A DNA stretch of 64,000 nucleotides from Candidatus Bathyarchaeota archaeon. Lineage in GTDB: Archaea; Thermoproteota; Bathyarchaeia; Bathyarchaeales; Bathycorpusculaceae. Where the stretch lies: contig OY969706.1 in NCBI GenBank assembly GCA_963702095.1, positions 736,001 through 800,000 of the forward strand, in the 5' to 3' direction. Position numbers and translations under genes: made by a program. The notes under the pieces are model-generated. The model saw only the letters and a program-made list of their open reading frames with translations. It was not told the origin of the DNA and searched no databases. Positions 7,801 through 53,099 of the stretch are shown here, in pieces. The stretch's first letter is position 1. Each line of letters begins with the position of its first letter.

Positions 7801-7972
7801 CTTTATGTGGGTGTGGCATTTTACGGCACACCACAAGAATGCAAAAGCGGCACGTTGCTTTTTGGGTTCGGGCTGTTTTTCTCTGTTTGTTTCGGTGTGG
7901 GCTGCGTGATTTCCTCCACAAGAATAACATACCTCTATGTTGGATTTGTCTGGGTGTGTATGTGGTGGCATG
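7801..7972 (-). repeat. Dispersed ~172-bp intergenic element, copy 1
   Basis: Aligns end to end (CATG...CCACACCCACATAAAG) with 43969-44140 and 52929-53099. Confidence 0.85.
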
Positions 7973-8074
7973 TTGAATCCGCTTAAGAATCCACCGCATA
8001 TCAATGAAACGCAATGTAATCAGGCACTAACATAGCCACCCGACGTAGTCAAAAAATTCCAAACAAAACAGCAA

Positions 8075-8908
8075 TTATCCGTCGCTGAATTCGCATCTGT
8101 CCCATTTGTCCCAGAAGAGCGCTTGACACGCAGCCACCAGCGCGGGGTGCTTTGTCCACAGTTCGGGTCCTTTGGCCAGTGGACTGTTGGGGGTGAAAGC
8201 CACTACCGCTTGCGTCCTATCGAAGACGGTCATTGCGGCAGTGGGCGGCTCCGGCGTGGTTTTGAGTTTGAAATTTGGGTGCTTGACCAAGGCAGTTTTG
8301 ACCCATTCGGGCAGGCAATGCACAGGCGGCTTCTCCGCAAGCAACTCCACCATCACACCCCTTTTGACTGCCTCCAGCAACTCCGCCTCAAAAAGAAAAC
8401 AAAACTGCCGAAACTGAACCCAACTCAACACTGCTTGCACCCGATGCTGGGCACTCCCAATCGCAGTCTGAAAGTTATTTTCGCCAGCCGTCTCCGAGAC
8501 AACGCCAAAAGACGGTGCGCCTTCTATGGGGTTTGGTATGATTTGCCTGAACTTTTTCGACAGCGCCATAGCCTGCTTGGTCATGAGGTTGAGTTCGGCT
8601 AGTTTGCGTTCAATGAGCAGCCCTGTTCCTTGAGCAATGGGCACAGCCGAGAAGCGCGTCGGGACAGTAAGGCAACGCTTTACCAGCCCCAACTGCTCCA
8701 GTTCCCCAAGAAGCCGATAAACCTCTTGACGTTCAATAGAAGCAAAACACGAAATCGCCTTAGCTTTGGTATCGCCAATTTTTAGCAATGCTAAATAAAT
8801 CCTCGCCTGCTTAGTTGAAAGCCCCAAGCTAGCCAAAACATCCACTCCCTCCACGCTTGACACGCTTCGGTTAAGTATTTGTGGGGGTTTTGTCAGGGGT
8901 GTTTGCAT
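8075..8908 (-). CDS. TrmB-family transcriptional regulator
   Basis: LGLSTKQARIYLALL...R.EVYRLL.EL...GLV...P.RF.A.P wHTH plus C-terminal effector domain; paralog at 26350-27204. Confidence 0.9.
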   Translation of the reverse strand: MQTPLTKPPQILNRSVSSVEGVDVLASLGLSTKQARIYLALLKIGDTKAKAISCFASIERQEVYRLLGELEQLGLVKRCLTVPTRFSAVPIAQGTGLLIERKLAELNLMTKQAMALSKKFRQIIPNPIEGAPSFGVVSETAGENNFQTAIGSAQHRVQAVLSWVQFRQFCFLFEAELLEAVKRGVMVELLAEKPPVHCLPEWVKTALVKHPNFKLKTTPEPPTAAMTVFDRTQAVVAFTPNSPLAKGPELWTKHPALVAACQALFWDKWDRCEFSDG

Positions 8909-9058
8909 TTTTTTCGTTCTTTTTGTTTAATGCTTTCCATGCTAATTACGCTGTCAAACAATATAACATTTACTTAATTTTACTTAAAAGTACAGAATAA
9001 CACAGAAAAATACAGATAACCCCTAAACGTGGCGACAATCATACTAAATCGGATGTAA

Positions 9059-9217
9059 ATGGTAAAAGTTAAGCTTACAGTCAGTATCCAGCCGGACATA
9101 GTTCACTGGATAGATGAACAAGTAGCACAAGGCCACTTCGCAGACAGAAGCCACGCAGTCCAATACTCCATGCTAAAAGTCAAAGAACTGATAGAAAAAG
9201 GACAAATAAAATTCTAA
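9059..9217 (+). CDS. Ribbon-helix-helix (CopG/Arc-MetJ) protein
   Basis: Absent from the ORF track (52 aa): MVKVKLTVSIQPDIVHWIDEQVAQGHFADRSHAVQYSMLKVKELIEKGQIKF; close paralog at 26049-26207. Confidence 0.85.
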   Translation: MVKVKLTVSIQPDIVHWIDEQVAQGHFADRSHAVQYSMLKVKELIEKGQIKF

Positions 9218-9441
9218 ACAAATCAGTCTGTGTTGAGAACCCAGTCACCCTCAAAGCGGCCCTCCTTTTAAAAATCAACCAAAACCAACCTACCCAAATC
9301 AACAATGATCAAGCCCTCGGTGGGACTTCGCCACCCTTTTCCATGAAAAAAGGAAAATACGCTAATTAAAAACCAGTACGTACAAGTGTTTTTAAAAAGG
9401 TTTAAAAAGAAAGAAAAGAGGTTTTTGAATAACCATAGCAC

Positions 9442-50452: not shown

Positions 50453-50457
50453 ACAAA

Positions 50458-50471
50458 TTATTAGTTAATAA
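50458..50471. promoter_or_regulatory. Candidate Fur/PerR operator
   Basis: TTATTA-GT-TAATAA inverted repeat between the fur start and its TATA-like box. Confidence 0.45.
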
Positions 50472-50576
50472 AAATTCTTAAATAAACCTTTTGCGTCATC
50501 CTATTGCAGATTAAGAGGAGCTTTTCGAAGATGATAGAAAACCCTTTTTTCACAATAATCAAGGAGTTGCACTATC

Positions 50577-52754
50577 TTGAATGACAAAAATGAACTTACT
50601 AGCCGCATGCTTAGGTCAAACCGAGATTGGTGGCCGAACCAGTTAAACTTGAAGATTTTACATCAAAATTCTAACCTACCTAATCCAATGGACAAAGACT
50701 TTAACTACGCAAAAGAATTCAAAAAACTCGACTATAACGCCTTAAAGAAGGACCTCGCTGCGCTGATGACCGACTCAAAGGATTGGTGGCCAGCCGATTT
50801 TGGTCACTATGGAGGTCTCATTATACGAATGGCATGGCATAGCGCCGGCACATATCGCAAGGGCGACGGCCGTGGGGGGGTAGCCGGAGGGTCACAGCGT
50901 TTCCCGCCTCTCAACAGTTGGCCGGACAACGTAAACCTTGACAAGGCCCGCCGTTTACTTTGGCCAATCAAGCAAAAATATGGCAAAAGAATCTCTTGGG
51001 CCGACTTGATGATTCTCGCCGGTAACGTTGCGCTTGAGTCGATGGGCTTTAAGACGTTTGGTTTCGGGGGCGGACGGGAGGACGTCTGGGAGCCGCAAGA
51101 GGACGTTTATTGGGGTTCTGAAACCACCTGGCTAGGCGGTGATAAACGTTACACAGGCGAGAGGGACCTTGAAAATCCGCTTGCCGCCGTTCAGATGGGG
51201 TTAATCTACGTTAATCCGGAAGGCCCAATCGGGAACCCAGACCCTGTTGCTGCTGCCAAAGATATCCGTGAAGTCTTCGCGCGCATGTCAATGAACGACG
51301 AAGAGACAGTGGCTCTCATCGCTGGCGGCCATGCCTTCGGTAAAACCCATGGCGCTGGTGATGCAAAACTAATTGGTCCCGAACCTGAAGCTGCCCCCAT
51401 CGAGGAACAGGGTCTTGGATGGAAGAGCAAATTTGGCACAGGCAAAGGCGATGACACAATTACCAGCGGCATAGAAGTCACCTGGACTCAGACGCCAACT
51501 AGGTGGAGCAACAACTTTTTACGAAACCTGTTCCGCTACGATTGGGAACTGACCAAGAGCCCGGCGGGTGCGTACCAATGGAAGCCGAAGGGTGACGCAG
51601 GCGCTGGAACCGTGCCAGATGCGCACGACCCGTCAAAGCGTCACGCGCCATCTATGCTGACCACTGACATCGCCCTGCGGTTTGACCCTGTTTACGAGAA
51701 GATTGCAAGGCGTTTCCTCGAAAATCCAGAGCAGCTAGCAGATGCCTTCGCCCGAGCATGGTTCAAGCTTACCCACCGCGATATGGGTCCCCGCTCACGC
51801 TACCTCGGTCCAGAGGTGCCAGCGGAGGAATTGATCTGGCAAGACCCAATACCGGCAGTCGATTATGAGTTAATCGATGAAAGGGACATCGCAGACCTCA
51901 AAGGCAAAATCCTCGCCTCTGGACTGTCAATCTCAGAACTGGTTTCAACCGCTTGGGCTTCTGCTTCCACTTTCCGTGGTTCCGACAAGCGTGGAGGTGC
52001 AAACGGAGCGCGTATTCGTCTTGCGCCGCAGAAGGATTGGGAGGTCAACCAGCCACCGCAACTAAAGAAGGTGCTACAGGTCCTTGAGGGAATCCAAAAG
52101 GAGTTTAACGGCTCACAGTCGGCTGGCAAGAAGGTTTCGCTCGCAGACTTGATTGTTCTGGGTGGATGTGTAGGTGTCGAGCAAGCTGCAAAGAACGCGG
52201 GTCACGACATAACAGTTCCCTTCTCGCCGGGACGCACCGACGCAGGGAAGGAGCAAACCGATGTGGAGTCATTTGCCGTTCTTGAACCGGTTGCGGATGG
52301 GTTCCGTAACTACCAAAAAACCAAATACGCTGTGCCAGCTGAGGAGATGTTGGTTGATCGTGCGCAACTGTTGACGTTGACTGCTCCTGAGATGACGGTG
52401 CTTGTTGGCGGTTTACGCGTTTTGAACGCTAACTTTGAGGGGTCAGAGCACGGTGTCTTCACCAAACAGCCGGAAAAGCTTACCAACGACTTCTTCGTGA
52501 ATCTACTCGACAATAACACTTCGTGGATGGCGACTTCTGACGACAAAGACCTCTTCGAAGGGCATGATCGCGCAACAGGCAATCTCAAGTGGACCGGCAC
52601 CCGCGTTGACCTCGTTTTTGGCTCAAACGCTCAACTCCGCGCCATATCGGAAGTCTACGCGTGTTTGGACTCTAAGGAAAAGTTCCTGCATGACTTCGTG
52701 GCGGCGTGGAACAAGGTTATGAACCTTGACCGATTTGACCTCGCCTGGAGATAG
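50577..52754 (+). CDS. katG: Catalase-peroxidase
   Basis: [64 protein letters not shown]. Confidence 0.98.
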
Positions 52755-52928
52755 CAACCTCCCTTCTCACCTCTTTTTTCTTTTAGAGGTATGTCCGAAA
52801 ATCATGCAGGGCTGATTTGAGGGACACGGAATAGCGCCCTTTTGCAGCAAGCTCTTGCCGCTGCTTCCTTTTTTTGGCAGCGCTGTGTTTTTCAATTCCT
52901 TTTTTTGAACGGTTAATCGGTTTTTTCT

Positions 52929-53099
52929 CTTTATGTGGGTGTGGCGTTTTGCGGGGTGCCACAGGACTGTTGTGGGCTGCGTTGTGTTTGGGGGGTGCAA
53001 CAGTTTTTAGCGTCTGTTTCGGTGTGGCGAGATTGTTTTTCTCCACACCCAGTGCATGCTTCCATGCAGGGGCGGTCGGGATGTGTGTGTGAATGCATG
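52929..53099 (-). repeat. Dispersed ~172-bp intergenic element, copy 4 (171 bp)
   Basis: Reverse complement CATGCATTCACACACACATCCCGACCGCCCCTGCATG...CCACACCGAAACA...GTGGCACCCCGCAAAACGCCACACCCACATAAAG. Confidence 0.88.

Follow-up and report, generated by a model that had tools for sequence, protein, structure and literature searches.

A 64,000-nucleotide stretch of a Bathyarchaeia genome (Candidatus Bathyarchaeota archaeon, assembly GCA_963702095.1, contig OY969706.1, bases 736001–800000; this whole stretch is called the window below) carries four intergenic copies of an element with a 172-bp core, which turned out to belong to a large family. We conclude that this family is probably a dispersed repeat of intergenic regions, non-coding, non-autonomous and specific to its lineage, of the same broad kind as the bacterial ERIC, BOX and REP, and that it is old and constrained. 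Dispersed intergenic repeats are well described in bacteria, and to our knowledge those of archaea have been described almost only as MITEs (miniature transposable elements with inverted repeats) derived from insertion sequences (IS). What is new here is a large, clade-restricted family without the tested transposases that is conserved at orthologous sites and has half of its positions constrained. The first-pass annotation of the window had offered three readings: a REP/ERIC-like or non-autonomous mobile element, a structured non-coding RNA family, or a family of metal-binding micropeptides. The first is favoured, the element being dispersed, intergenic, non-coding, restricted to one clade and uneven in copy number, although the tests specific to MITEs, REP/RAYT units and IS200/IS605 elements gave negative results.

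Family size and anatomy

The genome is a single contig of 2,937,366 bases with 46.8% G+C. We built a hidden Markov model (HMM) from the four copies, numbered 1 to 4 along the window, and iterated it once across the whole genome at E ≤ 0.01. This search, which the first-pass annotation had recommended, returned 114 nhmmer hits (62 on the minus and 52 on the plus strand), so that the repeat is far beyond chance and the four copies are a sample of a large family rather than its only members. Ninety-two hits are near full length (155–177 bp, mostly 170–172). The window itself holds exactly the four copies and no additional one; the density of about one per 16 kb estimated from it does not extend to the family, which averages about one hit per 26 kb. 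Other copies of this genome are 76–83% identical to copy 3.

The core is C- and A-rich on one strand and contains three short hairpins and three conserved A5 runs. Its limits had been set from CATG to the 3' end; the 172-nt core so defined holds, but the outer limits do not, as many copies extend further. Conservation continues upstream past CATG, with an A/T-rich box at about −17 to −10 in most copies (columns 13–15 are A or T in 87, 82 and 72 of the 92). An A-rich tail follows the core irrespective of the neighbouring gene, with means of 6.6 and 6.0 A within its first 10 nt. The two youngest pairs of copies are 99.5% identical over −14 to +180 and 98.5% identical over −16 to +179, with unrelated flanks, and the 99.5% pair includes the tail. 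Because these pairs share exactly −14/−16 to +179/+180, we take the unit to be about 195 bp in total; it consists of the 172-bp core, a short A/T-rich box before it and an A-rich tail after it.

An optional module of about 110 nt lies upstream in about a third of copies, and some copies have further 5' sequence. The module HMM gave 44 genomic hits, 36 abutting a core and 8 solo. In about 20 extended copies the start lies still further 5': a T-rich run and a TATA-like word come first, and GT-rich sequence comes next. After several of the solo modules there is another repeat, and beyond it a gene in the same orientation.

The module is shared with a second repeat of about 385 nt, found at genome positions 2864722–2865106 and 930523–930897 (98.7% alike), which has this module at its start, as do many of the 172-nt copies. 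It has weaker relatives (75–83%) near 1145132, 356816, 1117675, 1402445 and 2011697, and in four cases a co-oriented gene follows it, for example one with an IlvD-like N-terminus.

Distribution across genomes

A BLAST search with copy 3 matched 7 of 24 genomes of the same genus and none of 16 genomes of other genera in the order. With a sequence-only model, 27 of 60 other genomes of the genus were matched, mainly the closest relatives, and the number of scored matches per genome ranged from 0 to at least 45. Six genomes, labelled G005, G007, G014, G015, G043 and G046, have at least 29 scored matches each. We compared these with the present genome by archaeal elongation factor 2 (aEF-2), where identities among the eight closest matches are 96% for G014, 95% for G007, 94% for G005 and G046 and 93% for G015. 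The closest relatives by this marker are thus the repeat-rich genomes, with G043 (91%) as an outlier. More widely, an exact pattern for the 3' end, run against one genome per species in 185,579 species, found 67 matching stretches, 64 of them in Bathyarchaeia or in 'uncultured archaeon' metagenome-assembled genomes, several named Bathy-6. Three bacterial matches and one viral match to the pattern gave no HMM hit. The expansion of the family probably took place in the ancestor of one sub-clade within a single Bathyarchaeia genus.

The aEF-2 comparison also brought up a second aEF-2-like gene at genome 615651–617726, with 39% identity to the canonical aEF-2 (1831039–1833207) and a counterpart at 38–46% identity in most genomes of the genus.

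Shared sites and sequence constraint

To ask where copies lie in other species, we used foreign copies found by the exact 3'-end pattern or by BLAST, a sample therefore biased towards well-kept 3' ends. Six duplicate loci were dropped, leaving 76 non-duplicate copies, and 65 of these had a flanking gene with an orthologue in the present genome. For 27 of the 65, this genome has a copy no more than 800 nt out from the corresponding end of the orthologue, compared with a null of 252 of 5294 gene ends (4.8%). The orientation relative to the gene was the same in 30 of 34 flank tests. At the syntenic loci the flanking proteins are 46–91% identical, and the non-coding flanks do not align. The excess over the null indicates that many copies predate the split of these species. 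Many would thus have kept their intergenic positions, most of which are next to gene 3' ends, and the majority of copies give the impression of being old and fixed, not of having moved recently.

Ninety of the 172 columns are at least 85% conserved. For a comparison by column we retained 20 of the 27 syntenic copies, leaving aside four with discordant orientation, two with a fragment as partner and one ambiguous case. At conserved columns, syntenic pairs are 0.851 identical and non-syntenic pairs 0.856. At 30 variable columns, syntenic pairs are 0.403 identical, non-syntenic pairs 0.378, and 0.412 is expected from column frequencies. The conservation profiles of copies from this genome and from other species agree (r=0.77). 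The same half of the positions is constant while the others are saturated, which argues for constraint on the sequence of the copies: roughly half of it would have been held in every copy and species while the remainder drifted to saturation. Selection for transposition acts on source copies alone and cannot easily explain such constraint; gene conversion could help.

Signs of exchange between copies were also seen. Some pairs are 98–100% identical along one part and 75–83% along the other; among them are pairs with 99–100% identity over 300–385 nt that drop sharply to 75–83% inside the core. Identity within a genome is 0.725 here and 0.741 and 0.781 in two others, and 0.63–0.72 between genomes. 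Occasional copy-to-copy conversion or duplication is thus, from these sequence patterns, still going on. Conversion alone would probably not keep one consensus in species whose neutral sites are saturated.

Copies in the window

The four copies claimed for the window are all present at the strands and places given for them, except that the span of copy 2 begins one base later, at 33507; the lengths of 172, 172 and 171 bp for the full copies hold as well. The copies and their parts are as follows, in window coordinates.

7801–7972, minus strand: copy 1, full 172-nt core (nhmmer model 1–172; cmsearch 108.3 bits)
7973–8041, minus strand: copy 1, A/T-rich box (7973–7990) and degenerate upstream module (about 8001–8041), from reading the sequence
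33507–33610, minus strand: copy 2, internally deleted (model 1–48 at 33563–33610, model 124–171 at 33507–33554)
43949–43968, plus strand: copy 3, A/T-rich box immediately 5' of the core, from reading the sequence
43969–44140, plus strand: copy 3, full 172-nt core (nhmmer 1–172; cmsearch 142.5 bits)
44001–44014, plus strand: copy 3, hairpin 1 core, arms 44001–44004 and 44011–44014 (RNAalifold pairs 34-47 to 37-44; minimum-energy fold)
44020–44046, plus strand: copy 3, hairpin 2, GTGTGG...CCACAC (pairing across copies; seen in the predicted fold)
44106–44129, plus strand: copy 3, hairpin 3, TGTGGC...GCCACA (pairing across copies; seen in the predicted fold)
44141–44150, plus strand: copy 3, A-rich tail 3' of the core (tail common to family copies)
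52919–52928, minus strand: copy 4, A-rich tail, from reading the sequence
52929–53099, minus strand: copy 4, full 171-nt core (nhmmer 1–172; cmsearch 123 bits)
53100–53214, minus strand: copy 4, upstream module with A/T box (module HMM match at genome 789214–789100, E=2.8e-25, directly abutting the core)

The upstream module of copy 1 resembles that of other copies and scores under the module HMM threshold. Copy 2 consists of two abutting nhmmer hits with model positions 49–123 missing, and is therefore an internal-deletion variant. The copy at genome position 808091 shares 94.5% identity with copy 4.

Each of the four adjoins a gene 3' end, as had been noted. Copy 1 lies 103 nt beyond the stop of a TrmB-family gene (8075–8908, minus strand) and 188 nt ahead of the next minus-strand open reading frame (ORF); copy 2 lies 75 nt beyond the stop of an ABC ATPase gene (33685–34452, minus strand). 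The 3' end of copy 3 is 43 nt from the stop of a convergent ABC-2 permease gene (44183–44932, minus strand), and its 5' end is 195 nt from the start of a P-type ATPase gene. Copy 4 occupies a convergent gap between a catalase-peroxidase gene (50577–52754, plus strand) and an Lrp/AsnC-type gene (53276–53656, minus strand). These six neighbours, among them the TrmB-family regulator, are mutually unrelated. The catalase-peroxidase-type gene encodes 725 residues that match the Pfam peroxidase family in two stretches (E=3.3e-72); the bathyarchaeal lineage is usually considered anaerobic.

Search for hallmarks of mobility

A rival account of the family is that of a non-autonomous mobile element, active now or until recently and moved in trans: an IS200/IS605-type palindrome-associated transposable element (PATE), a rolling-circle-like element with a subterminal 3' hairpin, or a retroposon resembling short interspersed elements (SINEs), with an A-rich tail. 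Near-identical pairs (99.5% and 98.5%) despite unrelated flanks are what such an element would leave, as is a copy number that is very uneven within one genus. While the 5' extent of duplicated units varies (−2, −14, −16, −63, −67 and −84), their 3' end is conserved; a hairpin lies 13 nt ahead of that end and the A-rich tail comes after it. Two similar hairpins on one strand without terminal inverted repeats (TIRs) or target-site duplications (TSDs) also recall IS200/IS605 ends.

The enzymes and sequence hallmarks were nevertheless not found. The first-pass annotation had seen no TIRs or TSDs, and this is upheld: an inverted-repeat search around copies 1 and 4 gave only arms of 10–20 nt with 70–100% match, none of them terminal, and the flanks of six recent pairs showed no direct repeat where identity ends. 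By eye, the GT-rich 5' extension had looked like an inverted core; the core HMM, run on 14 extensions, gave a best minus-strand hit of only E=2.3 (a control of 280 shuffles gave 0 nhmmer hits), and we dropped this candidate. The absence of a transposase, at first noted for the window, applies genome-wide to the families searched. This genome has no match to Y1_Tnp (PF01797), the TnpB Zn-ribbon (PF07282), RVT_1 (PF00078), the IS110 DEDD domain (PF01548) or DDE_Tnp_1 (PF01609), the transposase search being confined to the families named here. Y2_Tnp (PF04986) gave no match either, but its control was also silent. Two sub-threshold hits to rve (PF00665), in ORFs of 377 and 385 residues at genome 1963138 and 1162128, lie 8–20 kb from any repeat copy.

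A co-occurring HUH/RAYT or IS200/IS605 transposase had been suggested as a possible partner. Across the genus, Y1_Tnp was found in 22 of 60 genomes and in none of the seven repeat-rich ones, which speaks against it. No master copy with a gene between module and core, the two lying 1–3 kb apart, was found; in two cases the two are separated by a 322-nt insert of another repeat. We found no blastn match in phages, plasmids or viral contigs, and an origin from any of these was discarded, the single viral match to the 3'-end pattern lacking HMM confirmation. The shared sites described above bear on the same question, since 42% of testable foreign copies have a syntenic counterpart here, oriented alike, so that most copies predate speciation. 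The near-identical stretches often take in just part of a copy, which fits conversion better than transposition. On this evidence we think it unlikely that the family is active or recently active, and favour an old, constrained repeat.

Two internally shortened (144-nt) copies, 98.3% identical and inverted, bracket 3.3 kb of genes at genome 1628927–1632523. The pair adjoins a tRNA-like sequence and has a composite-like arrangement. A third dispersed repeat, CA-rich and similar in composition to the 172-nt core, was noticed by eye near genome 1511400 and 1482850 and, on the reverse strand, at 2142564, 2425325, 2622733, 2620052, 2709308, 2712140, 1504845, 1153711 and 89622.

Hairpins and RNA structure

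The conserved hairpins raise a different possibility, that the copies form a multi-copy family of genes for structured small RNAs, each transcribed on its own, with the A/T-rich box as TATA box and the core as the RNA. The box lies at a fixed distance in most copies, the roughly 20 extended copies begin with a T-rich run and TATA-like motif, three hairpins are conserved across species and constraint covers half of the positions.

Hairpins 2 and 3 are kept in nearly all copies, as had been reported for those of the window: paired cells amount to 94.6% in 28 copies of this genome and, in a cross-species alignment of 107 copies, to 88.2% for hairpin 2 and 93.4% for hairpin 3. Because these stems are almost invariant, they neither prove nor disprove a fold. 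For hairpin 1, three compensatory base-pair swaps had been described. They exist between copies 1 and 4, but at the level of the family the outer pairs are often unpaired: in 92 copies, pair 58-71 is AC in 30, GU in 27, AU in 23 and GC in 9, and pair 62-67 is GC in 60 and AC in 22.

Covariation depended on the sample and the measure. Among the 28 copies of this genome there was no excess (0.095 compared with 0.087 in shuffled alignments, reached in 69 of 500). Among the 107 copies, double changes were raised (58 vs 39.7±5.6), as was the covariation score (0.109 vs 0.091), and neither was reached in 500 shuffles, which would favour an RNA. In the same 107 copies, measures robust to relatedness were flat (6 vs 5.6 pairs, 290/500; 21 vs 20.1 types, 183/500). 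Most of the changes belong to hairpin 1 (AU 40/UA 21; GC 39/AU 15) or to the inner pair of hairpin 3 (CG 34/UG 27/UA 9), and about 30% of cells at the covarying pairs are unpaired.

RNAalifold found no consensus fold for the 92 copies on either strand, and its covariation term for the 28 copies was −0.01. On the sense strand, fold z-scores against shuffled sequences were only −1.28 and −1.75, and the antisense strand gave −0.20. Rfam gave no match at the gathering score over the window, the best E-value being 3 on 601 bases around copy 4, and no family at E≤10. RNAalifold predicted a long-range helix between module and hairpin 3 on 11 extended copies; in a duplex-energy test, in which 14 of 28 module-bearing copies passed the anchors, the cognate helix was no more stable than shuffled partners (p=0.88), and we rejected it. 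The sense strand is also without an oligo(T) terminator (0.02 runs of five or more T per copy), and the TATA-like motif differs from the genome's usual promoter word. As a general promoter the word of the extensions was likewise rejected: TATAGGGG has 71 occurrences across the genome, and ATAGGGG was counted 5 times among 2097 upstream regions. A scan for bacterial-type promoters and terminators, not designed for archaea, found nothing. The local hairpins thus have modest support, with no sign of a highly structured RNA. The structured non-coding RNA family proposed at first is not supported beyond three short local hairpins, having no Rfam match and weak, measure-dependent covariation, and genes for independently transcribed small RNAs appear improbable to us.

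Coding potential of the core

A His/Cys micro-ORF had been described at the start of every copy in the window, and could mean that the family encodes small His/Cys-rich metal-binding peptides translated from the 5' ATG of the core. An ATG does lie within the first 8 bases in 70 of the 92 copies, long open frames are common, and the four window copies share a start of the form M-x-S/P-H-T/P-H. There are, moreover, coupled changes within codons (AAC/UGC in 48 vs 35 copies, CAC/UGC in 61 vs 22). As a feature of the family the micro-ORF did not hold up, since the first 8 bases lack an ATG in 22 of 92 copies and early stops are found in many. The conserved 3' block is read in all three frames (28, 20 and 16 copies, with 28 unassignable). 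Column entropy by codon position (0.731, 0.738 and 0.774) shows no periodicity (permutation p=0.32), and pN/pS is 0.76 in the ATG frame, 0.79–0.88 in the other forward frames and 0.75–0.99 in the reverse frames. A Pfam search found no family above its cut-off. Long open frames are expected anyway because the sense strand is T-poor, and His and Cys codons because the sequence is CAC/ACA-rich and the stems carry TGT/TGC. The coupled codon changes also lengthen or preserve hairpins 1 and 3. With no common frame, no periodicity, no lowering of pN/pS and no Pfam match, we reject a micropeptide family as extremely improbable and treat the repeat as non-coding.

ORFs of 86–103 residues derived from the repeat and running into the flank occur in the window at 7693–8004 (minus strand), 33335–33634 (minus), 43970–44263 (plus) and 52931–53191 (minus). 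Gene callers may annotate such spurious Cys/His-rich ORFs, 55–120 residues long, as (hypothetical) proteins.

Placement and a possible role at transcript ends

Of the 92 copies, convergent gaps hold 28, divergent gaps 13 and tandem gaps 51; these types of gap make up 20%, 26% and 54% of intergenic length (chi-square about 9.8, 2 df). Seventy-nine abut a gene 3' end. From the tail, the median distance is 64 nt to a convergent stop codon and 157 nt to a downstream start codon. The two strands differ in runs of five or more T, a signal for termination in archaea: the antisense strand has 2.29 per copy at conserved positions, and 72 of the 92 copies have at least two. All 41 genes that meet the element tail-first encounter such a run in the spacer, tail or element; for other genes the figure is 30–44% within 60–150 nt.

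That the copies are kept in the same places across species suggests that they are probably useful to the cell. Together with the lack of any MITE hallmark, the shared sites and the 90 positions held across species make the repeat a candidate functional cis element in Bathyarchaeia. From its placement and the strand asymmetry of its T-runs, the element might act in cis at transcript ends: a gene meeting it tail-first would run into stacked terminators, made of antisense T runs and hairpins, and a gene meeting it head-first would gain a structured 3' untranslated region. We propose this function tentatively, as a possibility. It is rather doubtful that a repeat of selfish origin has since been recruited by the host, with each of the roughly 100 copies selected as a putative strand-specific transcript-end module. 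If so, it would be the first archaeal counterpart of functional repeats of the ERIC/SPRITE type, in a lineage without the tested transposase families.

Several observations weigh against an old, constrained repeat with a role at transcript ends. The gene neighbourhoods rest on crude longest-ORF calls. Orientation in tandem gaps is unbiased (24 sense vs 27 antisense), which is not what a strictly polar terminator predicts; the excess of 41 tail-first over 22 head-first cases may merely reflect longer 5' extensions, and some of the A-runs are to be expected given the A-rich composition. Syntenic pairs do not resemble each other more than paralogues do: in a hand-picked list of 39 such pairs, 36 of them scorable, the syntenic partner ranked first in none. 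This also fits replacement of resident copies, and is explained in our reading by variable columns that are saturated and conserved columns that are constant everywhere. The constraint itself could partly be mimicked by continuing gene conversion, identity within genomes being slightly above that between them. Finally, 33 of the 60 genomes of the genus have no match, three of them single-contig assemblies, and the element is therefore dispensable for the genus.

Bathyarchaeia are an abundant, uncultured lineage of sediments and wetlands. In this genome the repeat copies also give points of repeat-induced assembly and recombination.

Comparison with known systems

Among the dispersed families of archaea are MITEs (for example SM1–SM4 of Sulfolobus, and those of Halobacterium and Haloquadratum), which like this repeat are small, multi-copy, intergenic and non-autonomous. 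The Sulfolobus SM families have 25–44 copies (as given in part of PMC10969869), so the 92–114 copies found here are comparable in number or more numerous. What defines a MITE is the presence of TIRs, of target duplications and of a parent IS, and none of the three was found for this repeat. A TIR-based census of 8220 archaeal genomes does not name Bathyarchaeia in the portion of its main text available (PMC11602168), and our search of the literature found no published work on repeats of Bathyarchaeia.

REP units are palindromes of 20–40 nt. With the REP/BIME-RAYT system and the PATEs of IS200/IS605 this repeat shares one-strand hairpins, the lack of TIRs and TSDs, and placement at gene 3' ends. 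The likeness to PATEs (similar hairpins 2 and 3 on the same strand, without TIR or TSD) is one of form only. Both systems are defined by a Y1 HUH transposase, found neither here nor in the seven repeat-rich genomes, and this genome has no TnpA (Y1) or TnpB partner of the PATE type. A SINE-like retroposon would share the A-rich tail; there is no RVT_1 match in this genome, nor were target duplications seen.

Among bacterial repeats, BOX, RUP and SPRITE of Streptococcus pneumoniae are modular, some of their modules being optional, and occur clustered with or next to other repeat families, and the same holds for this repeat. SPRITE carries terminator-like sequences (stated in part of PMC10969869), which parallel the T-runs found here; its terminators are Rho-independent, with a hairpin followed by U residues, whereas the T-runs of this repeat do not directly follow hairpins. 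As far as is known, these bacterial elements are unrelated in sequence to the archaeal repeat.

Together with BOX and SPRITE, ERIC is what this repeat most resembles in behaviour. ERIC is an imperfect palindrome, classed with MITEs for its inverted ends; this repeat has neither dyad symmetry nor TIRs and, unlike ERIC, is strongly strand-asymmetric and archaeal. Both are intergenic, non-coding, 100–200 bp long and without a transposase of their own, and both have internal-deletion variants, here copy 2. ERIC copies at gene 3' ends can alter transcript stability, and E. coli K-12 has 30 ERIC copies, S. Typhimurium LT2 has 150 and Photorhabdus has 711 (all as given in part of PMC10969869). Copy number thus differs greatly between related taxa in ERIC, as it does here, with 0 to at least 45 scored matches per genome. 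In both, finally, one consensus seems to outlast such differences: that of ERIC was reportedly found by Wilson and Sharp in 2006 to be kept across species, and the consensus of this repeat is likewise kept across species with very different copy numbers, as expected of an ERIC-like family.

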